The notes: a model not told the origin generated them from the sequence alone. Shown: positions 2,159-52,841, counted from the stretch's first letter. The stretch is DNA of 64,000 nt from Escherichia coli (GCF_003018255.1 NZ_CP027440.1); one strand, 5' to 3'. Numbers and translations are program-made.

Positions 2159-2434
2159 GGGCCAGGTAAAGCAAGTAATGATACAAAAGAAGCTGCTGGC
2201 CGTTGTGACCTCGTTGAAACCGATAATAGTTGTGTGGAGAACTGTTTAAAAGGGAAGTTTAAAGAGGTAAGGCCGCGTTATTCTGTATTGCCTGATATAT
2301 TCACACCTATAAATTTAGGGCTATTTAAAAACTGCCAAGACTGGTCTAATGATTCTTTAGAAACATGTAAGATGAAGTGCTCCGGAAATAACATTGGACG
2401 TTTTATTAGATTTGTATTTACCGGAGTGATGTAA
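2159..2434 (+). other. In-frame continuation of the Rhs C-terminal region after a single amber codon; cysteine-rich 92-codon segment, possible distal half of a toxin domain
   Basis: Same reading frame as the rhs ORF; only TAG at 2156-2158 separates them, and the frame stays open to TAA at 2432-2434. AT-rich like typical Rhs-CT regions. Confidence 0.45.
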
Positions 2435-2760
2435 TGAAATGTATTATTTTTTTATTCAGAGCTATATGGCTGGCTTTATCGCTTTTAATACTATTCTTTT
2501 CCATGCATAGACTTTCACTATTAGACTCCACTCGTGATGTGAGCGAGTTAATTAGTCTCATGTCTTATGGAATGATGGTAATATGTTTTCCAACAGGCAT
2601 AGTATTCTTTATTGCTCTAATATTTATAGGGACTGTTTCAGACATTATTGGCGTAAGGATTGATAGTAAGTATATTATGGCGATAATAATATGGCTTTAT
2701 TTTCTGTCAGGAGGGTATATTCAATGGTTTGTATTAAGTAAGCGCATTATAAACAAATAA
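2434..2760 (+). CDS. Small predicted membrane protein (about 3 hydrophobic segments), candidate Rhs immunity protein
   Basis: 108-aa ORF whose ATG overlaps the preceding stop (TAATG); strongly hydrophobic stretches; position immediately after the Rhs-CT is typical for rhsI genes. Confidence 0.55.
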   Translation: MKCIIFLFRAIWLALSLLILFFSMHRLSLLDSTRDVSELISLMSYGMMVICFPTGIVFFIALIFIGTVSDIIGVRIDSKYIMAIIIWLYFLSGGYIQWFVLSKRIINK

Positions 2761-2805
2761 ATTAAGTTAATTGCTCTTGTTATTATATGTAACCTGGGCA
2801 TTGAT

Positions 2806-3275
2806 ATCCCGTATGCCACAGACCCGGCAGGCAACCGCCTGCCCGACCCGGAGCTGCACCCGGACAGCACCCTCAGCATGTGGCCGGATAACCGTATCGC
2901 CCGTGACGCGCACTATCTTTACCGGTATGACCGTCACGGCAGGCTGACAGAGAAAACCGACCTCATCCCGGAAGGGGTTATCCGCACGGATGATGAGCGG
3001 ACTCACCGGTACCATTACGACAGCCGGCACCGGCTGGTGCACTACACGCGGACACAATATGCAGAGCCGCTGGTCGAAAGCCGCTATCTTTACGACCCGC
3101 TGGGCCGCAGGGTGGCAAAACGGGTGTGGCGGCGTGAACGGGACCTGACGGGCTGGATGTCGCTGTCACGGAAACCGGAAGTGACCTGGTACGGCTGGGA
3201 CGGCGACCGGCTGACCACGATACAGAACGACAGAACCCGCATCCAGACGGTTTATCAGCCGGGGAGCTTCACGCC
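2806..3275 (+). pseudogene. Orphan rhs core fragment, near-identical duplicate of window positions about 938-1395
   Basis: Translation of 2878-3275 matches the rhs ORF almost residue-for-residue ([26 protein letters not shown]...[10 protein letters not shown]); homology breaks at 3275 where the H-rpt sequence starts. Confidence 0.85.
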
Positions 3276-4567
3276 CAGGGAAAGATCATCAGAAGTACAC
3301 TTTTTGTACTAAGTAATTCGCATTTTATGTTTAAAAATCGAGATATTCCTCATTACCTGAAGCTGTTTTTTATTGCGTATACATGATCAAATACTCCTTA
3401 CATAATTAAGGAGAACAAAATGGAACTTAAAAAATTGATGGAACATATTTCTATTATCCCCGATTACAGACAAGCCTGGAAAGTGGAACATAAATTGTCG
3501 GATATTCTACTGTTGACTATTTGTGCCGTTATTTCTGGTGCAGAAGGCTGGGAAGATATAGAGGATTTTGGGGAAACACATCTCGATTTTTTAAAACAAT
3601 ATGGTGATTTTGAAAATGGTATTCCTGTTCACGATACCATCGCCAGAGTTGTATCCTGTATCAGTCCTTCAAAATTTCACGAGTGCTTTATTAACTGGAT
3701 GCGAGATTGCCATACTTCAGATGATAAAGACGTCATCGCAATTGATGGAAAAACACTCCGGCATTCTTATGGCAAGAGTCGCCGCAGGGGAGCGATTCAT
3801 GTCATTAGTGCGTTCTCAACAATGCACAGTCTGGTCATCGGACAGATCAGGACGGATGAGAAATCCAATGAGATTACAGCTATCCCTGAACTTCTTAACA
3901 TGCTGGATATTAAAGGAAAAATAATCACAACTGATGCAATGGGTTGCCAGAAAGATATTGCAGAGAAGATACAAAAACAGGGCGGTGATTATTTATTCGC
4001 TGTAAAAGGAAATCAGGGGCGGCTAAATAAAGCCTTTGAGGAAAAATTCCCACTGAAAGAATTAAATAATCCAGAGCATGACAGTTACGCAATTAGTGAA
4101 AAGAGTCACGGCAGAGAAGAAATCCGTCTTCACATTGTTTGCGATGTCCCTGATGAACTTATTGATTTCACGTTTGAATGGAAAGGTCTGAAGAAATTAT
4201 GCGTGGCAGTCTCCTTTCGGTCAATAATAGCAGAACAAAAGAAAGAGCCAGAAATGACGGTCAGATATTATATCAGTTCTGCTGATTTAACCGCAGAGAA
4301 GTTCGCCATAGCAATCCGAAACCACTGGCACGTGGAGAATAAGCTGCACTGGCGTCTGGACGTGGTAATGAATGAAGACGACTGCAAAATAAGAAGAGGA
4401 AATGCAGCAGAATTATTTTCAGGGATACGGCACATTGCTATTAATATTTTGACGAATGATAAGGTATTCAAGGCAGGGTTAAGACGTAAGATGCGAAAAG
4501 CAGCCATGGACAGAAACTATCTCGCGTCAGTCCTTGCGGGGAGCGGGCTTTCGTAATCTTGCCCTGA
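3276..4567 (+). mobile_element. H-rpt (H-repeat, ISAs1-family) element, full-length copy
   Basis: About 1.3 kb unit containing a 378-aa transposase-like ORF; its 5' leader (3300-3420) and 3' end recur in the adjacent defective copy; boundaries approximate. Confidence 0.7.
3420..4556 (+). CDS. yhhI: H repeat-associated protein / ISAs1-family transposase
   Basis: 378-aa [35 protein letters not shown]... recognised as the H-rpt ORF; SD-like AAGGAG 8 nt upstream. Confidence 0.85.
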
Positions 4568-4613
4568 TCAGACCACCGTTGATCACCATATCCATGAGTT
4601 TATGAATAAAGGG

Positions 4614-5192
4614 CAGGGAAAGATCACGCAACGCTGCTTTTTTGTACTAAATAATTCGCACTAAATATTCAATAATTGAGATATTCCTTATTACCTAAAG
4701 CTGTTTTCCATTGCTTATACATGATCAAATACTCCTTACATAATTAAGGAGAACAAAATGGAACTTAAAAAATTGATGGAACATATTTCTATTATCCCCG
4801 ATTACAGACAAGCCTGGAAAGTGGAGCATAAATTGTCAGATATTCTACTGTTGACTATTTGTGCCGTTATTTCTGGTGCAGAAGGTTGGGAAGATATAGA
4901 GGATTTTGGGGAAACTCATCTCGATTTTTTGAAGCAATATGGTGATTTTGAAAATGGTATTCCTGTTCACGATACCATTGCCAGAGTTGTATCCTGTATC
5001 AGTCCTGAAAAATTTCACGAGTGCTTTATTAACTGGATGCGTGACTGCCATTCTTCAGATGATAAAGACGTCATTGTAATTGATGGAAAAACGCTCCGGC
5101 ACTCTTATGACAAGAGTCGCCGCAGGGGAGCGATTCATGTCATTTCTCGCGTCAGTCCTTGCGGGGAGCGGGCTTTCGTAATCTTGCCCTGA
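4614..5192 (+). mobile_element. Defective second H-rpt copy with large internal deletion
   Basis: Leader and first about 125 codons nearly identical to copy 1, then jumps directly to the last about 15 codons and 3' end of the element (junction near 5143). Confidence 0.7.
4758..5192 (+). pseudogene. Truncated yhhI-like transposase remnant (internal deletion)
   Basis: 144-aa ORF identical at the N-terminus to the 378-aa H-rpt ORF but lacking about 250 internal codons. Confidence 0.8.
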
Positions 5193-5209
5193 ATACCGGA
5201 CTGAGTATA

Positions 5210-5244
<35 letters not shown>

Positions 5245-5345
5245 TGGTCAGTTCATAAACGCCTTATCCGGCCTAAAAAAAACTAAAATTCAATAAATTG
5301 CACCAATGCGTAGACCCTATAAGCTTACGCATCGGGCAACTGTAA

Positions 5346-6473
5346 TTACGCCATTGTCCCAATTGTCTTCCTGAATCTCAACAGTGCGATGGTGAAAAAC
5401 GCGCCGCCAATTGCCATCAGTGTCAGGAACTGCGGCCAGACGATTTCGAATCCGGCACCACGGTAGAGAATGGCCTGCGCGAGGCTAACAAAGTGTGTCG
5501 TCGGCATGGTCAGCATAATGTCCTGCACCATCTGCGGCATACTTTCGCGCGGCGTGGAACCACCGGAAAGCATTTGCAGCGGCAGCAGCACCAGAATCAC
5601 CAGCAGCCCCAGTTGCGGCATTGAACGCGCTATCGTCCCCATAAAAATACCGATTGACGTGGTGGCAAACAGACTGAGCGCCACGCCCAGCATAAACAGC
5701 GGGATCGAGCCTTCTATCGGTACGCCCAGCACGCCTTTTACCATCAGCACCAGCGATAATCCCGACACCACCAGCACCACCAGCCCCATCGACCAGACCT
5801 TTGCCATCATGATCTCAAACGGCGTTATCGGCATCACCAGTAAGTGTTCCACCGTGCCGTGTTCACGCTCGCGGATCAGCGCCGATCCGGTCAATACAAT
5901 CGCCAGCATGGTAATGTTGTTGATGATCGCCATCACCCCGCCAAACCACGCGGGATCAAGGTTCGGGTTAAAGCGCATCCGTGTTTCCAGCGATACCAAC
6001 GGTTCGCTGTTATCACGGTAGCGCGCGACAAAGCTGTTCACTTCACCGTTGATAATATTCTGGATATACCCATTGCCGGTAAATGCCTGGCTCATGCGCG
6101 TGGCATCGACGTTCACCTGAATATCCGGCTGGCGTCCGGCGAGGACATCACGCTGAAAATTAGGCGGAATATTTATCGCGAAGGTATAACGTCCGGCGTC
6201 CAGCCCGGCATCCATCTCATCGGCGGTGATCATCTCCGGTGGCAAAAACCACGGGCGATAGAAGCTGTTAACGATCCGGTTCGATAACTGCGATTGATCC
6301 ATATCGGCAATGGCGATCGGCGCGAGGTTCAACGATCCTGGCGTAACGGTCGCTGACGAATACACCGACACCGTAAACGAGAAGACAATCAGCGTCAGCA
6401 TCGCTTTATCACCGAGCAGACTGCGCAACTCTTTGATACCCAGATTAAAAATATTACGTAAATGGCGCATCAT
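5346..6473 (-). CDS. yhhJ: ABC-2 type transporter permease
   Basis: Hydrophobic 375-aa product; start chosen at MMRHLRNIF, overlapping the rbbA stop; operon position after rbbA. Confidence 0.85.
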
Positions 6474-9205
6474 CCCTCCTGTTTTTTCAGCAGCAGGATG
6501 CTTAAGCCCATCACCAGCGGTATGGCTATCAGCAACGGGATAAAAAGTTGCCACAAATCAGTCAGATCCAGCGCTTTCGAGAACGTTCCGCGGGCGATAG
6601 TCAGAAAATGACTGGTCGGGTAAACCTCGCCGATCCAACGTCCTGGACCTTCCAGCGAAGCTACCGGATCGATCATCCCGGAAAACTGTGTCGCCGGGAT
6701 CAACGTGATAATTGCCGTACCAAAAATGGCGGCAATCTGGCTTTTCATAAAGGTGGAGATCAGCAGCCCCATTCCGGTGGCGATGATGATATACAGCAGC
6801 GCCGCCAGGGTGAGAGTCAGGAAACTGCCTTTATGCGGTACGCCAAATACAAATACCGACAGGGCGCAGAGCAGGAAAAAGTTCAGCATCCCCAGCGCGA
6901 TGTATGGCAGCTGTTTGCCAAGCAAAAATTCGCTACGGGTGGTGGGGGTCACGTAAAGGTTGATAATCGACCCTAGCTCTTTTTCCCGCACCACGCTAAG
7001 GGCGCTTAGCATTGACGGGATCATCATCAGCAGAAGCGGGATCACCGCCGGAACAATCGCCGGCAGGCTTTTTACGTCCGGGTTATAGCGATAGCGCGTC
7101 TCAATATTCATCAGCCCGCTTTGGCTGGCGGGTGTGGACTGTCGGCTCGCCACATCCTGTAGCCAGCTCTGGTGCATGGCCTGCACGTAGCCTTTTACCG
7201 TTTCGGCGCGGCTCGGCATCGCACCGTCGATCCAGACACCGAGTTCCACGGGCGTACCACGCGCGATATCGCGCCCGAAATTAGGAGGGATCTCAATTGC
7301 CACCGTGATATCGCCCGCACGCATCCGACGATCAAGCTCGTCATAACTGGTGAGCGGCGGCTGTTCGATAAAGTAACGGGAACCGGAGAGATTGAGCGTC
7401 CACGCCTGGCTACTGACGGTTTGATCGCGGTCAAGCACCGCAAAGCGCAGGTTTTCCACATCCATACTGATGCCGTAACCCATTATCAGCATCAGGATCA
7501 CCGTTCCCATCAGCGCCAGCGTCGAACGTACCGGATCGCGTCGCAGTTCCAGCGCTTCGCGGCGGCTGTAGCTAAACAGACGGCGCAGGCTAAATCCCTG
7601 ACGCGCCGCGTGGGTGGTGTCGTGTATCACGGGCGGCGCTTCGGCTTCGTTGCTCTGCCCTGCCGCTTCCTGCAAACAGGCGATAAATGCCTCTTCCAGA
7701 CTTGCGGCTCCGCGTTTCTCAACCAGTTCCTGCGGTGTCCCGCTGGCGAGCACTTTTCCGGCGTGCATCAGTGAGATACGGTCGCAACGTTCCGCTTCGT
7801 TCATAAAGTGGGTGGAGATGAAGATAGTCACTTTGTCCTGGCGCGAGAGATCGACCATCAACTGCCAGAACATATCCCTCGCCACCGGATCGACGCCAGA
7901 AGTAGGCTCATCGAGGATTAACATCTCCGGGCGATGAATCACCGCCACCGCCAGCGAAAGCCGCTGGCGAATGCCGAGCGGCAATGACTCCGGCAGAACA
8001 TCTTCAACGTCGTTGAGCTTAAAACGCTCGCTCATTTCAGCCACTCGCGCGGGAATTTCCGCTTCCGGGATGTGAAACAAACGGGCATGTAACTCAAGGT
8101 TTTGCCGCACGGTGAGTTCGTTATAGAGCGAAAACGCCTGCGACATATAGCCTACCCGACGGCGGGTATCGATATCTTTTGGATCAACCGGTTGCCCAAA
8201 CAGCCACGCCTCACCTTCGCTGGCGGGCAGCAGTCCGGTGAGCATTTTCATGGTGGTGGATTTACCGCAGCCGTTCGAACCGAGGAATCCAAAAATCTCC
8301 CCGCGTGGAATGCGGAAATTGACGTGATCAACGGCAACGAAGGAACCAAAACGCATGGTCAGATCGCGCGCTTCGATGGCAATCTCTGCGTTTTCAGGGT
8401 GATACGGTGGGATCACTACCGCCTGATGCGCCTGGCGTTGCGCTTGCGGTAACAGATTTATAAATGCTTCTTCCAGCGTGGCGCTTTGCGTTTGCTGCCG
8501 CAGCTCTTCGGCGCTGCCGGTTGCCAGCACTTCTCCGGCATTCATCGCTACCAGCCAGTCGAAGCGTTCGGCCTCTTCCATGTAGGCGGTGGCGACCAGC
8601 ACGCTCATATTGCTCTGCCGCTGGCGAATGCTGTCGATCAAATCCCAGAACTGGGCGCGGGAGAGCGGGTCAACCCCCGTTGTTGGCTCATCAAGAATCA
8701 ACAGTTCCGGGTCGTGGATTAACGCACAGCACAGCCCAAGTTTTTGCTTCATCCCGCCGGAGAGTTTCCCTGCCGGACGATCACGAAACGGTGCTAACCC
8801 GGTGCTGGTCAGCAGCTCATTGATTCGCACTTCCCGCTCCGCTTTGTCGTGACCGAACAGGCGAGCGAAAAAATCGACGTTTTCATACACCGACAAGGTG
8901 TGGTAGAGGTTTTTGCCCAGCCCCTGCGGCATCCAGGCGATGCGCGGGCAAACGTCGCGGCGATGCTTCGGGTCGCGCATATCGCCGCCCAGCACCATCA
9001 CGCTGCCCTGCTCAATGACGCGGGCACCGGAAATCAACGACAACAAGCTCGATTTACCGACACCATCCGGTCCAATCAGCCCGACCATGCAACGGGCCGG
9101 AATATCGAGTGTGATATTGTTCAGCGCAACGGTTTTTCCATAATGCTGGCTCACGCCCGCCAGTTGCGCGACAGGCGGGACGGGAACCAGTTCCAGATGC
9201 GTCAT
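6470..9205 (-). CDS. rbbA: Ribosome-associated ATPase, fused tandem ABC ATPase domains plus permease domain
   Basis: 911-aa ORF with two Walker A motifs ([18 protein letters not shown]) and ABC signature LSGGMKQK, C-terminal membrane domain. Confidence 0.9.
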
Positions 9206-10269
9206 TGCGGCAACCTCACCACCAGGTCGTCAGGCCACGGAAGTTCTTCATTCACCCGCACCCACGCTACGCCCGGCAATCCGGTTTTGACATATTCCAG
9301 ATGCTGCTGGAGTAATTCCGGTGGGATACGCGCTTTGACACGGAACATCAATTTCAGCCGCTCATCGCTGGTTTCGACGGTTTTTGGCGTGAACTGGGCG
9401 ACGCTGGCGACAAAACTGATGGTCGCGGGAATACGCAGATCTGGTGCAGCATCAAGAATCAAACGTGCTTCACCGCCCAGTTTCAGCGTGCCCGCCTGTT
9501 CGGTTGGCAGAAAGAAGGTCATATAGACGTCGCTGAGATCGACCATATTCAGCACCCGACCGCCTGCCGCCAGCACTTCGCCTGGCTCGGCAACCCGATA
9601 CTGCACGCGTCCGTCACGCGGGGCTTTCAGTTCGCTGTCATCGATATCTGCGGCAATGCGCCGTTCAGTGGCTTGTGCCGCTTCGACGCGAGTTTGCGCC
9701 TGAATGATATTGGTGCGTGCCGCCTCTATAGCGGCTTTAGAAGCAGAAACCTGAGCTTTTGCCGATTCCAGCGCAGCTCGGGCGCTCTCAGCGGCGGCGC
9801 GGTCGTCATCCAACTGTTGCGCAGAAATTGCCCCCCGTTGTGCCAGTGAGCGGGAACGCGTATGACGTTTTGCTACGGAGTCCAGTTCTGCCTGGCGTTG
9901 ATTAACCAGCGACTGTGCGGCACGAGTTTCGCTTTGGCGTTGCTCCAGCAAAGCCTGCGCGGCGGCAACGGCACTTTGTGCTTCTTTGATTTGCGCGATG
10001 GCTTCCAGTCGCTGTTCCTGCAACACGCGAGTATCCATCTTCGCCAGCACTTCACCTTCTCGAACAAACTGGCCTTCTTTCACCAGAATGGTGTCGATAC
10101 GCCCGGCAATTTTGCTGGCGATATCCACTTCCGTCGCTTCAATGCGCCCATTGCTGACAGCAAAGCCTTCCGGCACACCCGCCGGGCGCAACAGCCACCA
10201 CGCCACGACGGCAGCCACCGCCAGTGCCCCGACAACCCACCACGCCAGATGGCGCTTACTCTTATCCAT
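9202..10269 (-). CDS. yhiI: HlyD-family membrane fusion protein
   Basis: 355-aa ORF with N-terminal TM anchor and long coiled-coil region; stop overlaps the rbbA start (translational coupling). Confidence 0.85.
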
Positions 10270-11002
10270 AATCGATCCGCCATAATCCCTGTAAGCAATC
10301 GACGCGTGTTACAACTGCCACCGAACGATGTTCAGCGGATTCTTCCATCCGGGATAAGAAGGAAATGGCAAATACGACCAGCGCACAGAGCATTGAGCGC
10401 CAATGGGGAAGGCTTAGTGAAAACGGGTAGTAATGTTGTCATCATCAGCATTCCTGGCCGTAAATGAAACACGCATACTCATAAGTGAAATCAATTAAAT
10501 ACTAACAGTTATATTCATGTTGTCTATTTGATTGCCATCAACTTGTGATACATCGCGATGTTCTTCCGTTCGCTGGTGTTTTTTCCAAAAATATTCTGTA
10601 CAGGTTCACAGATTCTGTTGCACAGGTTTCCGTAACAGGGAAACCTGATGACTATCACATAGCGTTATTATCGCCTGATGTGCGAATAAATACCGAATAT
10701 AAAATAATTTATTCTGAAAAGATGATAGATGATAAAGGCTCGTGGGTTTAATAAAATATTCCCTAAAAGACTCATTTAAAACAACAAAATAAGATAAAGA
10801 TATTAATTCAGAGTTTATCTTAGGATAAATATTTATTTAATAGCATTAACTCACAGCTAAAAGTTGATCCCCATAACGCTAAATCCGATTATAGTGAAGT
10901 TACTTTTTTTAATTGATGGCATCTTATAGACATATTTAACTAACTGAAAAGACGAATCATATGTTTTTCGAAGTGTAGCAGAAAATATATATGGGGTTTA
11001 AA

Positions 11003-12055
11003 ATGAATATATATATCGGATGGTTGTTTAAATTAATTCCTTTACTGATGGGTATAATATGCATCGCATTAGGTGAGTTTGTATTAACCGGTTCTGGGCA
11101 AAGTGAATATTTCGTTGCAGGGCATGTTCTGATTTCTCTTTCTGCGATATGTCTGGCATTGTTCACTACCGCATTTATTATTATATCTCAGTTAACTCAC
11201 GGCATGAATAAATTCTACAACAGGTTATTTCCCGTTATTGGTTATGCCGGTTCTGCTACAACTATGATTTGGGGATGGTCACTGTTGGCAAGCAATAATG
11301 TGATGGCAGATGAATTTGTCGCCGGTCATGTTATTTTCGGCGTTGGCATGATTGCCGCTTGTGTATCAACCGTAGCGGCATCTTCCGGACATTTTCTGTT
11401 GATCCCCAAAAACGCCTCGGGCAGTAAGAGTGACGGTACGCCATTGCAGGCCTATTCTTCAACAATCGGTAATTGCTTAATTGCCGTTCCCGTTCTGCTT
11501 ACTCTCTTTGGTTTCATTTGGTCAGTCATACTGTTACGTAGTGCAGATATCACACCACATTATGTTGCAGGTCACGTACTAATGGGGTTAACGGCAATTT
11601 GCGCTTGTCTTATTGGCCTTGTCGCCACTATTGTCCATCAAACGCGGAATACGTTCTCAGTGAAAGAACATTGGCTGTGGTGCTATTGGGTTATTTTGCT
11701 TGGCTCACTTACCATTATTTTTGGTATCTACGTATTAATCAGTTCAGATGCAAGCGCCCGCCTGGCCCCCGGCATTATTCTCATTTGCCTGGGGATGATC
11801 TGCTACAGTATTTTCTCCAAAGTGTGGTTGTTAGCGCTGGTATGGCGACGCACCTGTTCGTTAGCCAACAGAATACCCATGATTCCGGTATTTACCTGTC
11901 TGTTTTGTCTGTTCCTTGCTGCGTTCCTGGCTGAAATTGCGCAAACCGATATGGCTTACTTTATTCCTTCGCGAGTTCTGGTTGGCTTAGGTGCAGTTTG
12001 TTTTACACTGTTTTCCATCGTTTCTATATTAGAAGCGGGTTCAGCGAAAAAATAA
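11003..12055 (+). CDS. yhiM: Inner membrane protein YhiM (acid resistance associated)
   Basis: Polytopic membrane protein with repeated FVAGHV motifs; start taken at MNIYIGWLF (ORF track begins 4 codons earlier). Confidence 0.8.
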   Translation: MNIYIGWLFKLIPLLMGIICIALGEFVLTGSGQSEYFVAGHVLISLSAICLALFTTAFIIISQLTHGMNKFYNRLFPVIGYAGSATTMIWGWSLLASNNVMADEFVAGHVIFGVGMIAACVSTVAASSGHFLLIPKNASGSKSDGTPLQAYSSTIGNCLIAVPVLLTLFGFIWSVILLRSADITPHYVAGHVLMGLTAICACLIGLVATIVHQTRNTFSVKEHWLWCYWVILLGSLTIIFGIYVLISSDASARLAPGIILICLGMICYSIFSKVWLLALVWRRTCSLANRIPMIPVFTCLFCLFLAAFLAEIAQTDMAYFIPSRVLVGLGAVCFTLFSIVSILEAGSAKK

Positions 12056-12067
12056 TAAAAAAGGCTT

Positions 12068-12099
12068 CAGATAAGGCGTTGGACGCCTTATCTGGTTTT
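12068..12099 (+). terminator. Intrinsic terminator hairpin between convergent yhiM and yhiN
   Basis: Perfect 11-bp stem CAGATAAGGCG/CGCCTTATCTG with 5-nt loop followed by GTTTT. Confidence 0.6.
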
Positions 12100-12141
12100 A
12101 TTCAGGTTAATCCCTCTGGTATCGAGAGCACATTTTGCTTC

Positions 12142-15066: not shown

Positions 15067-15084
15067 TTGTACGCACCAAAACGA

Positions 15085-41792: not shown

Positions 41793-42046
41793 CGTAATAT
41801 CCTCAACTATAAAGTGAAAGAGCCGTCACGAATCAATTTCGACACTGAGGTTATAACCTGGTTTTCTGTATATGTCATGTTGATGGAAAATATCAAAATC
41901 AGATATTTTTATTTCAATACAATGAGTTACAGACGCATCAGATACTGTAATTAGGAAATTTTTATTAAATCGACTGCATTCTTACACGCGTTTTTGGCAT
42001 AGATTGATAGCAGGGGATTTTCTTCTTAATTTTATAGGGTGGTTCT

Positions 42047-43417: not shown

Positions 43418-43945
43418 ATGATTTTTCTCATGACGAAAGATTCTTTTCTTTTACAGGGCTTTTGGCAGTTGAAAGATAATCACGAAATGATAAAAATCAA
43501 TTCCCTGTCAGAGATCAAAAAAGTAGGCAATAACCCCTTCAAGGTTATCATTGATACCTATCACAATCATATCCTTGATGAAGAAGCGATTAAATTTCTG
43601 GAGAAATTAGATGCCGAGAGAATTATTGTTTTGGCACCTTATCACATCAGTAAACTAAAAGCTAAAGCGCCTATTTATTTTGTCAGCCGCAAAGAAAGTA
43701 TCAAAAATCTTCTTGAGATTACTTATGGTAAACACTTGCCCCATAAGAATTCACAATTATGTTTTTCACATAATCAGTTCAAAATTATGCAACTGATTCT
43801 GAAAAATAAAAATGAAAGCAATATCACGTCGACGCTCAATATTTCGCAACAAACATTAAAGATTCAGAAATTCAACATTATGTACAAACTGAAACTAAGA
43901 CGTATGAGCGACATCGTCACCCTGGGTATCACATCTTATTTTTAG
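43418..43945 (+). CDS. gadE: LuxR-family acid resistance activator GadE
   Basis: Start set at MIFLMTKDSFLLQGFWQL (175 aa); the ORF track's 201-aa form carries a 26-codon extension. Confidence 0.9.
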   Translation: MIFLMTKDSFLLQGFWQLKDNHEMIKINSLSEIKKVGNNPFKVIIDTYHNHILDEEAIKFLEKLDAERIIVLAPYHISKLKAKAPIYFVSRKESIKNLLEITYGKHLPHKNSQLCFSHNQFKIMQLILKNKNESNITSTLNISQQTLKIQKFNIMYKLKLRRMSDIVTLGITSYF

Positions 43946-44283
43946 TCAGGACATAAGCAACTGAAATTGATGGCTGGCATGACGAGGGATGCAGATGCTG
44001 ATTTCATTACCCCCGGTGATTACTAAAGGAGAGGCGAAAACGACTTTATTCCCCTGGTATATGTATCCACCAGTAGAACCCTTCGTTGCCCGAATGCTGG
44101 CAGGAACTGTTGGCAGAACGGCAACATTTTTTTTGTCGTTGACCTCACCATGTCGATCACTGTGCCTGTATCCCACCTTACTGGCTGACAACCCCACTAT
44201 GCCGCTGGTCTGTAAATCCCTCATATCTCTCCTCGCGCGCAATTTAAAGAACCGTTATTTCTCAAGAATTTTCAGGGACTAAA

Positions 44284-45441
44284 ATGAACAGAAGAAGAAA
44301 GCTGTTAATACCGTTGTTATTCTGCGGCGCGATGCTCACCGCCTGCGATGACAAATCGGCGGAAAACGCCGCCGCCATGACGCCTGAGGTCGGTGTCGTC
44401 ACACTCTCCCCCGGTTCGGTCAATGTGTTGAGCGAATTGCCTGGTAGAACCGTTCCTTATGAAGTTGCCGAGATACGTCCCCAGGTGGGCGGTATTATCA
44501 TTAAACGCAACTTTATCGAAGGCGATAAAGTGAACCAGGGCGATTCGCTGTATCAGATTGATCCTGCGCCTTTACAGGCAGAGCTGAACTCCGCCAAAGG
44601 CTCGCTGGCGAAAGCGCTCTCTACCGCCAGCAATGCCCGCATCACCTTTAACCGCCAGGCATCGTTGCTGAAGACCAACTACGTTAGCCGTCAGGATTAC
44701 GACACCGCGCGCACCCAGTTGAATGAAGCAGAAGCCAATGTCACCGTCGCCAAAGCGGCTGTTGAACAGGCGACTATCAACCTGCAATACGCAAATGTCA
44801 CCTCGCCGATTACGGGCGTCAGCGGGAAATCGTCGGTGACCGTCGGCGCACTCGTTACCGCTAATCAGGCAGATTCGCTGGTTACCGTACAACGTCTGGA
44901 CCCGATTTATGTCGATCTCACGCAGTCGGTGCAGGATTTCTTGCGCATGAAAGAAGAGGTCGCCAGTGGGCAAATCAAACAGGTTCAGGGCAGTACGCCA
45001 GTACAGCTCAATCTGGAAAATGGTAAACGTTACAGCCAGACCGGCACGCTGAAATTCTCCGACCCGACGGTGGATGAAACCACGGGCTCCGTGACGTTAC
45101 GGGCGATTTTCCCCAACCCAAATGGTGACTTGCTGCCTGGCATGTACGTCACGGCATTAGTGGATGAAGGTAGCCGCCAGAATGTATTACTGGTGCCGCA
45201 GGAAGGCGTCACCCACAACGCCCAGGGTAAAGCAACGGCGCTCATTCTGGATAAAGACGATGTTGTGCAGCTACGCGAAATTGAAGCCAGCAAAGCCATC
45301 GGCGACCAGTGGGTTGTCACCTCTGGCTTGCAGGCTGGCGATCGGGTGATCGTTTCCGGTTTGCAACGCATTCGTCCGGGTATCAAAGCACGAGCAATTT
45401 CCTCCAGCCAGGAAAACGCCAGCACCGAATCGAAACAATAA
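44284..45441 (+). CDS. mdtE: RND efflux membrane fusion protein
   Basis: 385 aa, lipoprotein signal (LTAC). Confidence 0.9.
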   Translation: MNRRRKLLIPLLFCGAMLTACDDKSAENAAAMTPEVGVVTLSPGSVNVLSELPGRTVPYEVAEIRPQVGGIIIKRNFIEGDKVNQGDSLYQIDPAPLQAELNSAKGSLAKALSTASNARITFNRQASLLKTNYVSRQDYDTARTQLNEAEANVTVAKAAVEQATINLQYANVTSPITGVSGKSSVTVGALVTANQADSLVTVQRLDPIYVDLTQSVQDFLRMKEEVASGQIKQVQGSTPVQLNLENGKRYSQTGTLKFSDPTVDETTGSVTLRAIFPNPNGDLLPGMYVTALVDEGSRQNVLLVPQEGVTHNAQGKATALILDKDDVVQLREIEASKAIGDQWVVTSGLQAGDRVIVSGLQRIRPGIKARAISSSQENASTESKQ

Positions 45442-45465
45442 CGTTGCAGGCTTAAGGGGACTTTC

Positions 45466-48400
45466 ATGGCTAACTATTTTATTGATCGCCCGGTTTTTGC
45501 CTGGGTACTTGCCATTATTATGATGCTTGCAGGTGGTCTGGCGATCATGAACTTACCGGTTGCGCAGTATCCGCAGATTGCGCCACCGACCATTACCGTC
45601 AGCGCAACCTATCCGGGTGCCGATGCGCAAACGGTAGAAGACTCGGTCACTCAGGTGATTGAGCAAAATATGAATGGGCTTGATGGCCTGATGTACATGT
45701 CTTCAACCAGTGATGCGGCGGGTAATGCCTCTATCACTCTGACCTTCGAGACTGGGACATCTCCTGATATCGCACAGGTTCAGGTGCAAAATAAACTGCA
45801 GCTCGCTATGCCTTCATTACCTGAAGCGGTGCAGCAGCAGGGGATTAGCGTCGATAAGTCGAGCAGTAATATCCTGATGGTAGCGGCATTTATTTCTGAT
45901 AACGGCAGCCTCAACCAGTACGATATCGCGGACTATGTAGCGTCTAATATCAAAGACCCGCTAAGCCGTACCGCGGGCGTTGGTAGCGTACAGCTCTTTG
46001 GTTCCGAGTACGCCATGCGTATCTGGCTGGACCCGCAAAAACTCAATAAATATAACCTGGTACCTTCCGATGTTATTTCCCAGATTAAGGTGCAAAATAA
46101 CCAGATTTCCGGTGGTCAACTGGGTGGCATGCCACAGGCGGCAGACCAGCAACTGAACGCCTCGATCATTGTGCAGACGCGTCTGCAAACGCCGGAAGAA
46201 TTTGGCAAAATCCTGTTGAAAGTTCAGCAAGATGGTTCGCAAGTACTGCTGCGTGATGTCGCCCGCGTCGAACTTGGGGCGGAAGATTATTCCACCGTGG
46301 CGCGCTATAACGGCAAACCTGCTGCCGGGATCGCCATCAAACTGGCTACCGGAGCAAACGCCCTGGATACCTCGCGAGCGGTGAAAGAGGAGCTGAACCG
46401 TTTATCGGCTTATTTCCCTGCAAGCCTGAAGACGGTTTATCCTTACGACACCACACCGTTTATCAAAATTTCTATTCAGGAAGTTTTCAAAACGCTGGTT
46501 GAGGCTATCATCCTCGTCTTCCTGGTCATGTATCTGTTTTTGCAGAATTTCCGCGCCACAATCATCCCGACGATTGCCGTACCGGTGGTTATTCTCGGGA
46601 CGTTTGCGATCTTGTCGGCGGTCGGTTTCACCATCAACACGTTAACTATGTTCGGGATGGTGCTGGCGATAGGGTTACTGGTGGATGACGCCATCGTGGT
46701 GGTGGAGAACGTCGAGCGTGTCATTGCGGAAGATAAGCTACCGCCGAAGGAAGCGACGCATAAATCGATGGGGCAGATCCAACGTGCGCTGGTCGGGATT
46801 GCCGTTGTTCTTTCCGCAGTGTTTATGCCGATGGCCTTTATGAGCGGTGCAACCGGGGAGATCTACCGCCAGTTCTCCATCACGCTGATCTCCTCCATGC
46901 TGCTTTCAGTATTTGTGGCAATGAGCCTGACCCCTGCCCTGTGCGCCACCATTCTGAAAGCCGCGCCGGAAGGCGGTCACAAACCTAACGCCCTGTTCGC
47001 ACGCTTCAACACGCTGTTTGAAAAATCAACTCAGCACTATACCGATAGCACCCGCTCGCTGTTGCGTTGTACCGGTCGCTACATGGTGGTCTACCTGCTG
47101 ATTTGCGCCGGGATGGCGGTGCTGTTCCTGCGTACGCCGACCTCTTTCTTACCAGAAGAGGATCAGGGGGTATTTATGACCACCGCGCAGTTACCTTCCG
47201 GTGCCACCATGGTTAACACCACGAAAGTGCTGCAACAGGTGACGGATTATTATCTGACTAAAGAGAAAGATAATGTTCAGTCGGTGTTTACCGTTGGCGG
47301 CTTTGGCTTCAGCGGCCAGGGGCAAAACAACGGCCTGGCGTTTATCAGTCTCAAGCCGTGGTCTGAACGTGTCGGTGAGGAAAACTCGGTTACCGCGATC
47401 ATTCAGCGGGCAATGATTGCGTTAAGCAGTATCAATAAAGCCGTCGTCTTCCCGTTCAACTTACCCGCGGTGGCTGAACTGGGTACCGCGTCAGGTTTTG
47501 ATATGGAACTGCTGGACAACGGCAATCTGGGGCACGAAAAACTGACCCAGGCGCGAAACGAGCTGTTATCACTGGCAGCGCAATCACCGAATCAGGTCAT
47601 CGGGGTACGCCCGAACGGCCTGGAAGATACGCCGATGTTCAAAGTGAACGTCAACGCTGCGAAAGCCGAGGCTATGGGGGTGGCGCTGTCTGATATCAAC
47701 CAGACAATTTCCACCGCCTTCGGCAGCAGCTACGTGAACGACTTCCTCAACCAGGGGCGGGTGAAAAAAGTGTATGTCCAGGCAGGCACGCCGTTCCGTA
47801 TGTTGCCGGATAACATCAACCAATGGTATGTACGCAACGCCTCTGGCACGATGGCACCGCTTTCTGCCTATTCGTCTACCGAATGGACCTATGGTTCACC
47901 GCGACTGGAACGCTACAACGGCATCCCGTCAATGGAGATTTTAGGTGAAGCGGCGGCCGGGAAAAGTACCGGTGACGCCATGAAATTTATGGCAGACCTG
48001 GTCGCTAAACTTCCGGCAGGCGTCGGCTACTCATGGACCGGACTGTCGTATCAGGAAGCGTTATCCTCAAATCAGGCTCCCGCGCTGTATGCCATTTCAC
48101 TGGTCGTGGTGTTCCTCGCCCTCGCCGCACTTTATGAGAGCTGGTCAATTCCGTTCTCGGTGATGTTGGTTGTACCGTTAGGCGTCGTTGGCGCATTAAT
48201 GGCCACCGATCTACGCGGCTTAAGTAATGACGTCTACTTCCAGGTTGGTTTGCTGACCACCATCGGGCTTTCCGCCAAAAACGCCATCCTGATTGTCGAA
48301 TTTGCCGTTGAGATGATGCAGAAAGAAGGGAAAACGCCGATAGAGGCAATCATCGAAGCGGCGCGGATGCGTTTACGCCCAATCCTGATGACCTCTCTGG

Positions 48401-48579
48401 CCTTTATTCTCGGCGTGCTGCCGCTGGTTATCAGTCATGGTGCCGGTTCTGGCGCGCAAAACGCGGTAGGTACCGGCGTGATGGGCGGGATGTTTGCCGC
48501 AACAGTGCTGGCAATTTACTTCGTTCCGGTCTTTTTCGTTGTAGTGGAACATCTCTTTGCCCGCTTTAAAAAAGCGTAA
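45466..48579 (+). CDS. mdtF: RND multidrug efflux transporter
   Basis: 1037 aa, AcrB-like 12-TM protein. Confidence 0.95.
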
Positions 48580-48591
48580 CGTGTAAATGAG

Positions 48592-48623
48592 AGTAAGGTT
48601 GAACGTGAGGGTTCAGCCTTACT
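48592..48623 (+). terminator. Hairpin terminator after mdtF
   Basis: 13-bp stem AGTAAGGTTGAAC / GTTCAGCCTTACT with one G-U pair, followed by a T-rich stretch. Confidence 0.55.
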
Positions 48624-48941
48624 CTTTCCTGCTAACCATTCACCACTCAACAACCAGCTAACCGTCAGGAATACCAGGCTTAGTACACAGCACTGAAAGT
48701 AGAAACCACTCCAGCCATTCGTCATCAATTTAAACAACACAATACTGACCCACATTCCCGTAATCGTATGAATTGTCAGCTTAATAATCCCAAACATGCC
48801 GAGTCTTTTCCTCCTGAAAATACCTATACCGCCTGGCAAACTGCGAAAGAGAACTAGCCGGTAGCCCGGCAGAAATCATCAGGGAAGAGTTTCACATGAA
48901 GCAGGTGTGAGATCCTGACCAATATTCAAATGCAAAATATG

Positions 48942-49670
48942 TCAGGAAAAGGTACCTGGCGAATGTTGCGCAAACTGATGTGGCGTTACACCATAATATT
49001 GTCGAAATGTGTTTATAAAGTACGACGTACTGCTATAGCCACATTTTTCCGCAATAGTATGCAGAGGAATTTGACGTAACTCGAGTAATCGTCTGGCCAT
49101 CGACATCCTGGAGGCGAGTAATATTTTACTGAAACAGGTATTTTCATCCTGCAACTTTTTTTTGATGAGACTCTCGCTGGTATACATTCTTTCCGCAATA
49201 TCGCGCAGATACCAACGTTTGGCGATATCAAAGCTAATAAGGCGTTCAACTTTTCCTGAAACAGTACTGATACTATTGAAAAGTAAGGGGATCAGTTCTT
49301 TCTTATGAGAAAACATCGATAAACAGGAAAGATAGAGCATTTTGCTCAATATCGGCGAATTTACCCCGGAGTCATTGAAACTATCAAAAATCGCCGTCAC
49401 CAGCGGCATGGGGGGTGACTGGTTAATTAACAGACGGTCTTTGCTATGTAACCCTAAATTGCGTGGTATCTGACGAATATTTTGTAAGTAATGGCAAACT
49501 GTCAGCTCATCGATATCCAGTCGTCGTGTATCCGGTGAACAAAACGCAAAATCGTCTGCCAAATTTTTATCCAGTAACAGGATACTCTCGTTATGCAACG
49601 ATATTTTTTGCTGTTCATGATGAATATCGAATGAACGACGAACGAGGATCACCGAGCAGACATGAGTCAT
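48942..49670 (-). CDS. gadW: AraC-family regulator GadW
   Basis: 242 aa, C-terminal AraC-type HTH. Confidence 0.9.
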   Translation of the reverse strand: MTHVCSVILVRRSFDIHHEQQKISLHNESILLLDKNLADDFAFCSPDTRRLDIDELTVCHYLQNIRQIPRNLGLHSKDRLLINQSPPMPLVTAIFDSFNDSGVNSPILSKMLYLSCLSMFSHKKELIPLLFNSISTVSGKVERLISFDIAKRWYLRDIAERMYTSESLIKKKLQDENTCFSKILLASRMSMARRLLELRQIPLHTIAEKCGYSSTSYFINTFRQYYGVTPHQFAQHSPGTFS

Positions 49671-49916
49671 GACTATCCCTTATATTTCATTGCTGCGATT
49701 ATTTCAATTTCAGTATACTAATGAAATGATGCCTGACTGTTTCTTAGCGCAAAAACTGCCAGATTTGGTAGGACCAAAATTTATCCACAAAGTAGTTTTG
49801 CATAACAGTTAATTGATAATAAGTAAATGCAACACGAATATATTTTCGCACAGCGTATAGCTTATGTTTATAAAAAAATGGCTGATCTTATTTCCAGTAA
49901 AAGTTATATTTAACTT

Positions 49917-50021
49917 ACTGAGAGCACAAAGTTTCCCGTGCCAACAGGGAGTGTTATAACGGTTTATTAGTCTGGAGACGGCAGACTATCCTCTTCCCGG
50001 TCCCCTATGCCGGGTTTTTTT
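49917..50021 (+). ncRNA. gadY: GadY small RNA, cis-antisense to the gadX 3' UTR
   Basis: Sequence ACTGAGAGCACAAAGTTTCCCGTGCCAACAGGGAG... matches GadY as recalled and ends in terminator CCCGG-N10-CCGGG plus TTTTTTT. Confidence 0.8.
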
Positions 50022-50037
50022 ATGTCTGAGTAAAACT

Positions 50038-50862
50038 CTATAATCTTATTCCTTCCGCAGAACGGTCAGTGCCGTAAAAATTCCCTTGCGCAGCCATACT
50101 TGCCGCCGGGCCACAGTTCGGTAATTCCTGCGCCGATCGCTCCTGATACTCTGTGGGCGTCATCCCATAATAATTTCGAAAAACGTAAATGAAATACGAC
50201 ACGCTGTGATATCCACAGGATACTGCAACTCGCTTAATTGAAACCCCATATATAACAATAAGTTGTAAAGCACGCTGCATCCTACACTCAGTAAGCAACT
50301 GTGAATATGACGTACCTTCTTCGCGCAATTTTTTCTTTAACAGGCTTGGACTCATCAACAATTCGCTAGCGATTCGGGCTAATGTCCACTCATGGGCGAT
50401 ATTATTATTGATGACCGTACAAACTCGTGTTCGCATATTCGGTTGCAACACGTTCAGAAGTAACGGTATAAACTGCGTATCCTCAAGAAAAACAGATAAC
50501 AACGCAAAGATTAATGCCCTTTTACGTAGCATTTCTGCATAGCGAAGATTCTTATTCTGCGACAGTTGCGCAACTTCCTGAAAAACAGGAATATCTCTGG
50601 TACAGTGATGAACGAGTAATGAAGGAACTTTTTTATGTGCATGAAGTTTTAATGCCTCCTCCTTGAGCATCGGGAGAAATAATGAAAGCGTGTCTCTTGA
50701 AACTAATACGAAATTCTCAACACACTTATCCACTTGAATTTGGCTTGCATCCGCAAAAACCAGATCACCGCCATTAAAATAGCGATATTCACCATTAACC
50801 ATGGTGAGAATATATTTATGTCTTGCGTACGCAATTAGACAATTACCATGTAGTGGTTGCAT
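50038..50862 (-). CDS. gadX: AraC-family regulator GadX
   Basis: 274 aa, paralog of GadW, position upstream of gadA on the same strand. Confidence 0.9.
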   Translation of the reverse strand: MQPLHGNCLIAYARHKYILTMVNGEYRYFNGGDLVFADASQIQVDKCVENFVLVSRDTLSLFLPMLKEEALKLHAHKKVPSLLVHHCTRDIPVFQEVAQLSQNKNLRYAEMLRKRALIFALLSVFLEDTQFIPLLLNVLQPNMRTRVCTVINNNIAHEWTLARIASELLMSPSLLKKKLREEGTSYSQLLTECRMQRALQLIVIYGVSIKRVAVSCGYHSVSYFIYVFRNYYGMTPTEYQERSAQELPNCGPAASMAAQGNFYGTDRSAEGIRL

Positions 50863-51230
50863 AGTTGACTTAATATTACATAAACATATTACTGTTTATT
50901 AATGTAGCACGCCGCCCTCTTAAGTCAAATTGATTGATAAATAAATTTAAACGAAGCGGGAGAACAGGATGATAATGTGTGATGTTCTACGGGCAGGATG
51001 ACTGGATTTATAATACAAAAACGCGTTTAAGAACGCAGGGAAATTAATAGTAAGCAAATAATCCCTTTTCGTTACATTAAATATAATCGCTACATTTAAT
51101 AAACATTCATATAACATATATCTTATCAACACGATGAATAGACAGCCAATATATTATTGCGATTAATAAGCAACCGAATGCCCAGCTGTTTTTTAAAGGT
51201 TGGGCATTCGGTTTTTACAACGTTATGTTA

Positions 51231-52631
51231 TCAGGTATGTTTAAAGCTGTTCTGCTGGGCAATACCCTGCAGTTTCGGGTGGTCGCTGAGATATTTCAGG
51301 GAGGCTTTGTAGTCTTCCAGCAACAGTTCAGCAAAGTCCATTTCGAAGCCGCGACGACACATAATGCGCATCACCACGATGTCAGTGGCTTCACCGCCGA
51401 GAGTGAAGGCCGGAACCTGCCAGCCGCGCAGACGCAGACGTTCAGAGAGGTCGTAGAGGGTGTATCCTGGATCTTCACCATCTTTCAGTTTGAAGCAAAC
51501 CGCCGGGATGCCTTCGTCCGGGCGACCGGTACAGATGAACTCATACGGCCCCAGTTTGGCGATTTCATCCGCCAGATAAGCGGCAACCTGGTAGGAAGCG
51601 TTCTGTACTTTGGTATAGCCTTCACGACCGAGGCGCAGGAATTCATAGTACTGTGCAATCACCTGACCCGCCGGGCGGGAGAAGTTGATGGCGAAAGTAC
51701 CAATCTGACCGCCGAGGTAGTCAACGTTGAACACCAGTTCCTGCGGCAGCGCTTCTTCATCACGCCAGATAACCCAGCCGCAGCCCAGCGGAGCCAGACC
51801 GAATTTATGGCCTGAAGCACTGATCGATTTCACACGCGGCAGGCGGAAGTCCCAGACGATATCCGGGGCGACGAACGGTGCCAGGAAGCCACCGCTGGCG
51901 GCGTCGATGTGCATGTCGATGTCGATACCGGTGTCGGCCTGGAATTTATCCAGCGCATCGTGCAGCGGCTGCGGGAACTCATAGTTACCGGTGTAGGTCA
52001 CGCCGAAAGTCGGCACCACGCCGATGGTATTTTCGTCGCAGGCTTCAATCATGCGTTTCGGGTCCATAAACAACTGACCGGGGCGCATAGGGATCTCACG
52101 CAACTCCACATCCCAGTAGCGGGCGAATTTATGCCAGCAGATTTGTACCGGACCGCACACCAGGTTTGGTTTATCCGTTGGTTTGCCTGCGGCTTCCATA
52201 CGCTTGCGCCAACGCCATTTCATCGCCATCCCGCCGAGCATACAGGCCTCGGAAGAACCAATGGTGTTGGTGCCAACGGCCTGACCATTTTTCGGTGCAG
52301 GCGCATGCCACAGATCGGCAACCATGTTTACGCAACGCAGGTCGATTGCAGCGGATTGCGGATATTCTTCTTTGTCGATCCAGTTTTTATTGATCGACAA
52401 ATCCATCAATTTATGGACGTTTTCGTCGTCCCAGGTCTGGCAGAAAGTGGCCAGGTTCTGACGAGCGTTGCCATCAAGATATAATTCATCATTGATAATC
52501 TGAAATGCAACATCATCGCGCATTTCGTGCAGCGGAAATCGTTTTGACTCCGCGATAGTAGAAATGGCCTTTGCACCAAAACGTGAATCGAGTAGTTCTG
52601 AGCGGAAATCCGTTAACAGCTTCTGGTCCAT
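51231..52631 (-). CDS. gadA: Glutamate decarboxylase alpha
   Basis: Start set at [20 protein letters not shown] (466 aa); PLP-binding [10 protein letters not shown] motif. Confidence 0.9.
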
Positions 52632-52710
52632 TTCGAACTCCTTAAATTTATTTGAAGGCAATAAAAAAGTAGGATTTATCCGCAATGGAAGCAAGGCATT
52701 ACAGGCTTAA

Positions 52711-52730
52711 TTTAAATAACAAAATCCTAA
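52711..52730 (-). promoter_or_regulatory. GAD box (GadE/GadX binding site) upstream of gadA
   Basis: Plus strand reads TTTAAATAACAAAATCCTAA, the reverse complement of the 20-bp GAD box TTAGGATTTTGTTATTTAAA, 80-100 bp upstream of the gadA ATG. Confidence 0.85.
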
Positions 52731-52805
52731 GCAGAAAAACGACCTTTTATAATATAAACATTTAATATGATAATATTAAAAACAGACTTTATTATCGTAA
52801 TAAAA

Positions 52806-52833
52806 ATCGCCCAAACACTCCTGTTCGGGCGAT
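52806..52833 (-). terminator. Intrinsic terminator after ccp (yhjA)
   Basis: ATCGCCC...GGGCGAT stem followed on the minus strand by TTTTT. Confidence 0.6.
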
Positions 52834-52841
52834 CAAATTAA

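Follow-up and report, generated by a model that had tools for sequence, protein, structure and literature searches.

Gene content of the window

The stretch of DNA analyzed here (the window) is 64,000 nucleotides of Escherichia coli chromosome running from rhs to pdeH (GCF_003018255.1, NZ_CP027440.1). It spans an Rhs element along with the acid fitness island slp-gadA, and its overall G+C content (GC) is 0.4935. Along this window, AT-rich blocks alternate with blocks of normal or high GC. This mosaic very probably reflects the layered structure of two known acquired elements within a conserved enterobacterial backbone.

The annotation was transferred from NZ_AP045072.1 (3645750-3709749) through a megablast alignment, and all open reading frames (ORFs) were checked and found open. 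All 64 kb are collinear with that record, at 99.6% identity and with seven single-base gaps. Reading from the left end, the genes are the 3' part of rhs, a ybfB-like ORF, an rhs fragment, ISEc1 (yhhI), and an ISAs1 fragment; then yhhJ-rbbA-yhiI-yhiY, a spacer, and yhiM; and then yhiN-pitA-uspB-uspA-dtpB-rsmJ-prlC-rlmJ-gor. After gor come dinQ/agrAB, arsRBC, an ArsR/SmtB regulator gene, an ArsP permease gene, yhiS, slp-dctR, and chuS-chuA-chuTWXYUV. The right end holds yhiD-hdeBA-hdeD-gadE-mdtEF-gadW-gadX-gadA, followed by ccp-treF-yhjB-yhjC-yhjD-yhjE-yhjG-pdeH. Rfam matches in the window were to GadY, two AgrB-type RNAs, ES205, and the shuA thermoregulator.

The base composition of the window is a strong mosaic

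A preliminary description of the window, made by eye, had named five AT-rich blocks and had proposed a sliding-window GC calculation, in which a flat profile would count against the mosaic. The profile was strongly non-flat. The standard deviation of GC in 500-bp bins was 0.071, about three times the 0.022 (maximum, 0.026) seen in 500 shuffles, and it was also above that of all shuffles of 100-bp chunks. The five named blocks had GC values of 0.338 (2160-2790), 0.357 (10270-11002), 0.370 (28000-31250), 0.393 (41000-44280), and 0.398 (48600-51200), against 0.596 for the rhs core, 0.569 for rbbA, 0.545 for prlC, 0.538 for gor, and 0.531 for mdtF.

The window was then divided by a penalised, globally optimal change-point segmentation, with segments of GC <0.44 called AT-rich. 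This gave 13 segments in the real window and one in each shuffle. Six segments were AT-rich: 1921-2820 (GC 0.367), 3281-5400 (0.399), 10461-11240 (0.321), 27841-30120 (0.337), 40921-44320 (0.391), and 48501-51240 (0.398). Two were GC-rich, and both are rhs pieces: 1-1920 (0.617) and 2821-3280 (0.635). A greedy binary Jensen-Shannon segmentation was discarded because it stalled on the alternating right half, lumping 30.9-57.5 kb as one segment.

All five blocks were thus recovered unsupervised, and the mosaic is confirmed as real and statistically strong, with some corrections to the list. The ISEc1/H-rpt block (3281-5400, GC 0.40) and the GC-rich segment 2821-3280 had been missed. The rhs block is AT-rich as described, but it does not start at 2160, a position that marks a TAG nonsense codon within the tip; GC drops at about 1920-1980, at the core/tip junction (1952-1981). 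The block at 28000-31250 consists mainly of yhiS and its flanks, with slp (0.46) and dctR (0.40) milder.

The controls were six 50-kb regions chosen arbitrarily from the same chromosome (mean GC 0.51). The window had 2.0 segments per 10 kb versus 0.6-1.2 in these regions, and 19% of its DNA was AT-rich versus a control mean of 7% (range, 0.8-23%). AT-rich segments were present in 6/6 control regions.

Coding sequences share in the compositional shift

Non-coding DNA makes up 36% of the AT-rich segments versus 10% elsewhere. When only coding sequence was considered, GC was still 0.394 inside the AT-rich segments versus 0.532 outside. GC at the first, second, and third codon positions (GC1, GC2, and GC3) was 0.46, 0.32, and 0.40 in the AT-rich genes versus 0.59, 0.40, and 0.60 in backbone genes (P = 0.0002 for GC3). 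The GC3 of mdtEF, gadA, and arsB was indistinguishable from that of the backbone (P = 0.26), and that of chu was slightly lower (0.52 versus 0.60; P = 0.008). TpA steps were two to three times more frequent in the AT-rich segments (64-109 versus 31-50 per kb), and A/T tracts were enriched there as well.

The codon adaptation index (CAI), also proposed in the preliminary description as a check, did not separate AT-rich from backbone genes (P = 0.10), even though CAI and GC were correlated across the genes of the window (Spearman 0.53). Values were low for ybfB (0.11), gadX (0.18), gadW (0.20), and yhiS (0.20), but hdeB reached 0.38, and hdeA had the highest CAI of the window (0.54). CAI was therefore rejected as a clean marker of foreign origin.

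In aligned 500-bp bins, GC was not correlated with inter-strain divergence (Spearman -0.04, P = 0.67). Only yhiS (89%) and yhiM (80%) stood out in this comparison; two AT-rich blocks were 97.8% and 96.6% identical between strains versus 96-98% for the backbone.

A 29.4-kb Escherichia-lineage insert lies between gor and ccp/treF

To place the blocks across genera, we retrieved 80 loci by Gor, with 10-kb flanks, from species-representative genomes and mapped all proteins encoded in the window onto them. Seventy-eight of these loci belong to non-Escherichia Enterobacteriaceae, including Salmonella, Citrobacter, Klebsiella, Enterobacter, and Kluyvera. The features of the window that bear on this comparison are as follows.

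12142-23402: backbone genes yhiN-pitA-uspB-uspA-dtpB-rsmJ-prlC-rlmJ-gor, GC ~0.53, with synteny in the 78 non-Escherichia loci
23403-52841: Escherichia-lineage composite insert, 29.4 kb, GC 0.468
26418-29877: nested module of an ArsR/SmtB regulator, ArsP permease (Pfam ArsP_1), and yhiS, 3.5 kb
27841-30120, plus strand: AT-richest gene-sized block, yhiS and its flanks, GC 0.337
29993-31242, plus strand: slp-dctR, left end of the acid fitness island, GC 0.46 and 0.40
31244-40301: chu heme-uptake cluster (chuS, chuA, chuTWXYUV), GC 0.49-0.56, with the shuA thermoregulator RNA
40921-44320: hdeB-hdeA, hdeD, a 798-bp regulatory spacer, and gadE, GC 0.391
44332-48579, plus strand: mdtE-mdtF, GC 0.53-0.55, within the lineage-specific insert
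48501-51240, minus strand: gadW, the GadY small RNA (sRNA; 49914-50026, plus strand), gadX, and flanking spacers, GC 0.398
51231-52631, minus strand: gadA, right end of the acid fitness island, GC 0.54, CAI 0.50
52842-64000: backbone genes ccp-treF-yhjB-yhjC-yhjD-yhjE-yhjG-pdeH, GC 0.51, with short AT-rich intergenic dips

The backbone order yhiN-pitA-uspBA-(dtpB)-rsmJ-prlC-rlmJ-gor-[ccp]-treF-yhjBCDE is kept in the 78 loci. The distance from gor to treF was 185-8919 bp in the 42 loci in which it could be taken (median, 2.2 kb) versus 31,241 bp in the window. Even with a cutoff of E <= 1e-5, the 78 loci gave no match to any gene between dinQ and gadA inclusive. We therefore regard the entire 29.4-kb stretch that begins at dinQ/ars and ends with gadA as an insert specific to the Escherichia lineage. 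This agrees with a xenoGI analysis that placed slp-gadA, with chu, on the Escherichia branch and found a non-syntenic copy in E. fergusonii (PMC5799925).

AT-rich segments cover only 29% of the 29.4-kb insert, and 71% of it is not AT-rich. Since mdtEF lies in the same Escherichia-only insert, mdtF is not a core gene.

No tRNA gene was found in the whole window, and neither an annotated integrase nor flanking direct repeats were found for the insert; the only sizeable direct repeats within 23.3-53 kb are the dinQ/agrA/agrB copies. A classical mobile genomic island, which is tRNA linked and has an integrase and flanking repeats, was rejected, as none of these three hallmarks was found.

Between gor and treF, the loci of other Enterobacteriaceae (L004-L082) hold 0.2-8.9 kb of varied content, and ccp is present in eight Citrobacter loci.

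Nested modules and the acid fitness island

The insert is itself composite. At its left end, the surroundings of dinQ (23614-24130) contain a 33-nt motif in three copies and a pair of 97-nt repeats that are 91% identical. These repeats match the AgrA/AgrB antisense RNAs, with Rfam AgrB matches at 23814-23897 and 24047-24130. A "hypothetical protein" annotated by the Prokaryotic Genome Annotation Pipeline (PGAP) at about 23818-24033 (record coordinate +1) lies over one Agr repeat copy and is probably spurious.

The module at 26418-29877 is missing from the Escherichia "E69" lineage, in which 276 bp separate the end of arsC from the region upstream of slp. E. albertii has neither this module nor arsRBC (loci compared, L009 and L003). 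Both carry slp-dctR-chu, and GC from slp to chuA is about equal in the three: 0.464-0.465 here versus 0.472 in E. albertii and 0.464 in the E69 lineage. In the window, yhiS is an intact ORF of 407 amino acids (28524-29747, GC 0.337) with no Pfam family. Elsewhere it is frameshifted (closest genome), split by IS5 (MC4100/K-12), or about 89% identical (CEA224S). The yhiS block contains 14 promoter-like sites within 2.3 kb. Over 26-46 kb as a whole, such sites were not in excess of shuffles (38 versus 34.4 ± 5.9), and only their clustering at yhiS is notable.

The acid fitness island has its full gene set and order, slp-dctR-yhiD-hdeBA-hdeD-gadE-mdtEF-gadW-gadX-gadA, with intact ORFs and LuxR-type domains in GadE and DctR. 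No island gene was found at any of the 78 non-Escherichia gor loci, consistent with restriction of the island to the Escherichia/Shigella lineage. The chu cluster is a clean insertion of 9,058 bp between dctR and yhiD, where a K-12-type strain has 35 bp. No direct repeats were detected flanking it (31244-40301).

Prevalence was determined in 5,426 complete E. coli genomes, with a block called present when at least 80% of it was found in one place. The hde-gadE block was present in 5410/5426 genomes (99.7%) and the gadW-gadX block in 5407/5426 (99.6%), while the chu cluster was present in 2234/5426 (41%). yhiS was present in 80% of the genomes, and some match to it, mostly 90-95% identical, was found in 99.9%.

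In the gadE-mdtE spacer, an antisense "hypothetical protein" (43946-44224, minus strand) overlaps the Rfam match to the ES205 sRNA (44063-44134, plus strand). This annotation is probably an RNA locus rather than a protein gene.

The Rhs element

The left end of the window has the organization of an Rhs element and contains the following features.

1-1981, plus strand: 3' part of the rhs core, GC 0.617, with five Pfam RHS_repeat matches and RHS, and the PxxxxDPxGL junction motif at 1952-1981
1982-2434, plus strand: C-terminal tip of rhs, "rhsC" type, of AT-rich composition and with no Pfam family, nonsense codon at 2156-2158
2434-2760, plus strand: small ybfB-like ORF located where an Rhs immunity gene would be expected, GC 0.315, CAI 0.11, no Pfam family
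2791-3276, plus strand: rhs core fragment, GC 0.63
3281-5400, plus strand: ISEc1/H-rpt block, GC 0.40, with a transposase at 3420-4556 (Pfam DDE_Tnp_1) and a partial ISAs1-family copy at 4758-5156

The core carries RHS/YD repeats and ends in the PxxxxDPxGL motif. At this junction GC falls from 0.62 to 0.37, and a tip of different composition and a small gene follow. Homology to a K-12-type strain, which has an rhsB tip and yhhH, ends at 1956, which is the junction. The stretch 2806-3275 is a 99% copy of rhs core 935-1404; GC peaks of this kind delimit displaced rhs pieces (Jackson 2009, PMC2935791). As the core is repeated, accessory, and of GC 0.62 on a chromosome of 0.51, it is not a core gene.

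From their positions, the tip is a putative toxin and the ybfB-like ORF a putative immunity gene. The tip and ybfB are intact in 2526/5426 genomes (47%), at more than one locus. In the window, codon 2156-2158, 68 codons past the junction, is changed from TGG to TAG; the closest genome (JNE112863) has TGG. Judged from this sequence, the putative toxin domain is truncated in this strain by the nonsense codon, and the downstream ybfB-like ORF is intact.

In comparison with CEA224S (L085), at 1957-2805 of the window the nikR-yhhJ (rhsB) locus bears a tip and gene of the rhsC/ybfB type (PGAP names). The presence of an rhsC/ybfB tip at the rhsB locus looks like tip replacement at a fixed locus.

The yhhJ-rbbA-yhiI arm and the yhiY-yhiM junction

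Between the Rhs element and the backbone lie three further features.

5346-10269, minus strand: yhhJ-rbbA-yhiI, GC 0.565, rbbA of which had served as a core comparator in the preliminary description
10446-11002: yhiY-yhiM spacer, GC 0.316
11003-12055, plus strand: yhiM (DUF2776), GC 0.433, divergent allele

The GC of yhhJ-rbbA-yhiI (0.565; GC3, 0.64) is clearly higher than that of the chromosome (0.51). The stretch 10500-10992 has no homolog in the K-12-type strain, where yhiJ and a DUF4049 pseudogene occupy this position (4 kb, GC 0.35). The yhiM gene is 80% identical in nucleotides and 90% in amino acids to the K-12-type allele, with flanks at 96-98.5%. Its divergence far exceeds normal divergence within the species, as judged from these alignments. 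The yhiY-yhiM junction is contiguous in 1122/5426 genomes (21%), and yhiM next to yhiN is absent from the 78 non-Escherichia loci. The region 10500-12146 is an alternative haplotype that is without yhiJ or yhiL and has an unrelated 0.5-kb AT-rich spacer and the divergent yhiM.

In the right arm, the yhjE-yhjG intergenic region (61143-61317) does not align to the K-12-type strain, whose differing sequence is similarly long.

H-NS occupancy of the corresponding regions

The preliminary description had found the AT-rich blocks to fit DNA silenced by H-NS. The GC of the six AT-rich blocks (0.32-0.40) is below that of the host (0.49 for the window and 0.51 for the six control regions), and all six lie in DNA that related lineages lack, at the genus or strain level. 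In ChAP-seq of K-12, SE11, and SE15, dctR, yhiD, hdeB, hdeA, hdeD, and gadE were H-NS bound, as were mdtE, gadW, treF, yhjB, and yhjC; yhhJ, uspB, uspA, dtpB, rsmJ, prlC, rlmJ, gor, yhjD, and yhjE were unbound (Higashi et al., PMC4720273 S2 Table). H-NS shifts the hdeAB, hdeD, yhiM, slp, and dctR promoters (Krin et al., PMC2984483), and H-NS-bound promoter islands have been described in K-12 at yhiL, yhiL/yhiM, arsC/yhiS, and insH/slp (Panyukov and Ozoline, PMC3661553). By high-resolution in vivo protein occupancy display (IPOD-HR), a continuous extended protein occupancy domain (EPOD) of about 5 kb covers hdeAB-yhiD/hdeD/gadE. This domain is largely lost without hns and stpA, and upon induction it is replaced by discrete activator peaks (PMC12266141). 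EPODs are AT-rich, and one covers rhsC (PMC8282354). The rhsC entry in another study (PMC9546599) is an incidental point mutation unrelated to H-NS binding.

For orthologs of the window's genes, binding is thus on record from ChAP-seq, IPOD-HR, gel shifts, and ChIP-chip (PMC4720273, PMC2984483, PMC12266141, PMC3661553), and this part of the claim stood. The silencing itself is conditional.

Origin of the mosaic

The data favor, with high probability, the reading that the mosaic arises from two acquired elements layered into a conserved backbone. The composition, boundaries, lineage specificity, and prevalence of the blocks were observed directly in this work. The first element would be the Rhs composite, consisting of a core of high GC, an exchangeable AT-rich tip (the putative toxin) with the small gene after it, a GC-rich core fragment, and the AT-rich H-rpt/ISEc1. 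The second would be the 29.4-kb Escherichia-lineage insert at gor-ccp/treF, built from the nested modules dinQ/agr, arsRBC, arsR2-arsP-yhiS, the acid fitness island slp-gadA, and chu within the island. Its AT-rich parts, together with those of the Rhs element, would be the regulators gadE, gadW, gadX, and dctR, the chaperones hdeAB, the family-less yhiS, rhs tip, and ybfB, and the long spacers; its GC-normal parts would be the enzymes and transporters mdtEF, gadA, arsB, and chu. By analogy with the published work, from which H-NS binding and derepression are taken, H-NS and StpA would nucleate on the AT-rich, TpA-rich, promoter-dense tracts, spread, and keep them off during growth. In stationary phase or in acid, RpoS together with GadE/RcsB, GadX, GadW, and EvgA-YdeO would relieve this silencing. 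Relief by RpoS and the island's own activators would make the silencing facultative.

Several points weigh against this reading. The cross-genus comparison reaches 10 kb from gor, with 42/78 loci extending to treF, and the left arm (yhhJ-rbbA-yhiI and Rhs) was compared within E. coli only. "Acquired" here means absent from sister genera, a donor or transfer event being a separate matter. The H-NS evidence comes from K-12, SE11, or SE15 counterparts rather than from this strain; for the rhs tip and ISEc1, it is the K-12 EPOD "in and around rhsC" (PMC8282354). Counts of the H-NS high-affinity motif TCGATAAATT (<=2 mismatches) in the AT-rich blocks matched those in same-segment shuffles; as these counts are what composition predicts, the blocks carry no sequence-specific signal beyond AT content. 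The CAI weights followed Sharp and Li 1987, with sanity values of 0.67-0.77 for ompA, rpsU, and rplT.

The preliminary description had offered a simpler account, that the AT-rich blocks are acquired and that the intervening DNA of normal GC (rhs core, rbbA, prlC, gor, and mdtF) consists of interleaved core genes. All AT-rich blocks do lie in DNA that is lineage specific or strain variable, namely, the Rhs element, the yhiY-yhiM junction, and the gor-ccp insert, and prlC and gor are true backbone. However, mdtEF, gadA, arsRBC, and chu are GC-normal and yet are missing from 78/78 non-Escherichia loci, AT-rich segments make up the smaller part of the lineage-specific insert, and the Rhs core, though of high GC, is accessory and repeated. 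Equating AT-rich with accessory fails within E. coli, where the most variable large piece is the GC-normal chu cluster and the largest AT-rich blocks are nearly universal; across genera, the acquired DNA extends well past the AT-rich blocks. The simple account is therefore unlikely, and the horizontal-acquisition reading of the preliminary description is partly supported, being about half right. Less likely again is that the AT-richness arose in place, through AT-biased mutation and relaxed selection in decaying or dispensable genes. The broken yhiS alleles of some strains, the 89% identity of this gene, and the nonsense codon of the rhs tip would fit such decay, but hdeAB, gadE, and gadWX are intact in >99% of genomes with low nonsynonymous divergence (dN; gadE dN = 0; PMC4720273 S2 Table), hdeA has the highest CAI of the window, GC1 and GC2 are depressed and not mainly GC3, and GC is unrelated to inter-strain divergence. 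Hardly any weight can be given to the notion that the mosaic merely reflects AT-rich non-coding DNA. The AT-rich segments are richer in non-coding sequence, and their long spacers, including the 798-bp hdeD-gadE spacer, have a GC of 0.29-0.36, but their coding sequences are shifted too, at all codon positions, with GC values of 0.33 for gadE, 0.34 for yhiS, and 0.32 for ybfB.

A different question is whether the AT-richness, rather than being the fading signature of a donor, is kept by selection for H-NS-dependent facultative silencing, as a kind of regulatory heterochromatin. This is conceivable but doubtful. In its favor, regulator genes and long regulatory spacers coincide with the AT-rich blocks, and the island's enzymes and transporters have normal GC; the blocks match the backbone in conservation between strains and are near universal; GC from slp to chuA is about equal in E. 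albertii and the E69 lineage; and the EPOD at hde-gadE is dynamic (PMC12266141). Against it, slow amelioration of foreign DNA or a composite origin from several donors fits the data equally, and no regulatory role is known for three of the AT-rich parts, namely, yhiS, the rhs tip, and ISEc1. From the gene content of the loci compared, the gor-treF junction looks like a recurrent integration hot spot. We tentatively suggest, as a possibility short of an even chance, that AT-richness over regulators and promoters was selected as an H-NS/StpA switch and that the gor-treF hot spot, recurrent across Enterobacteriaceae, gathered nested cargo without a tRNA or integrase.

Returning to the layered-element reading, it carries a caution for annotation. 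In this window, base composition picks up only some 29% of the lineage-specific insert and wrongly assigns to the "core" both the GC-rich Rhs core and the acquired but GC-normal mdtEF, gadA, ars, and chu. What AT-richness marks is the part of the acquired DNA that H-NS targets, rather than all of it, and it is uninformative on whether a block varies within the species.

Comparison with known systems

The literature already covers the difference in composition between Rhs core and tip, the acid fitness island with the chu cluster embedded in it, and the control of that island by H-NS, and the window resembles each of these systems closely. Like other targets of xenogeneic silencing by H-NS/StpA, the AT-rich blocks lie in lineage-specific DNA and abound in TpA steps, A/T tracts, and promoter-like sites, and their orthologs in K-12, SE11, or SE15 are H-NS bound in published data. 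Unlike typical targets, the acid-resistance blocks are silenced conditionally, and hdeA is codon adapted and highly expressed when induced. In addition, base composition gives too low an estimate of acquisition, as 71% of the acquired DNA in the window lies outside AT-rich segments.

As in other Rhs composite elements, RHS repeats, the PxxxxDPxGL junction, a GC drop, a small ORF, a GC-rich fragment, and ISEc1 (H-rpt) are all present. The element differs in that an rhsC/ybfB-type tip stands at the nikR-yhhJ (rhsB) locus and that this tip has a nonsense codon.

The acid fitness island differs from its K-12 form in that it is the chu-containing form, found in 41% of complete genomes, and in the intact yhiS and the extra ArsR/ArsP pair to its left; nothing substantive sets it apart beyond these. 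It shares with the island of E. coli and Shigella the same gene content and order, including GadY and chu/shu, it adjoins ars and ccp/treF, it is restricted to Escherichia as reported previously (PMC5799925), and, according to the literature, it is under H-NS and RpoS control.

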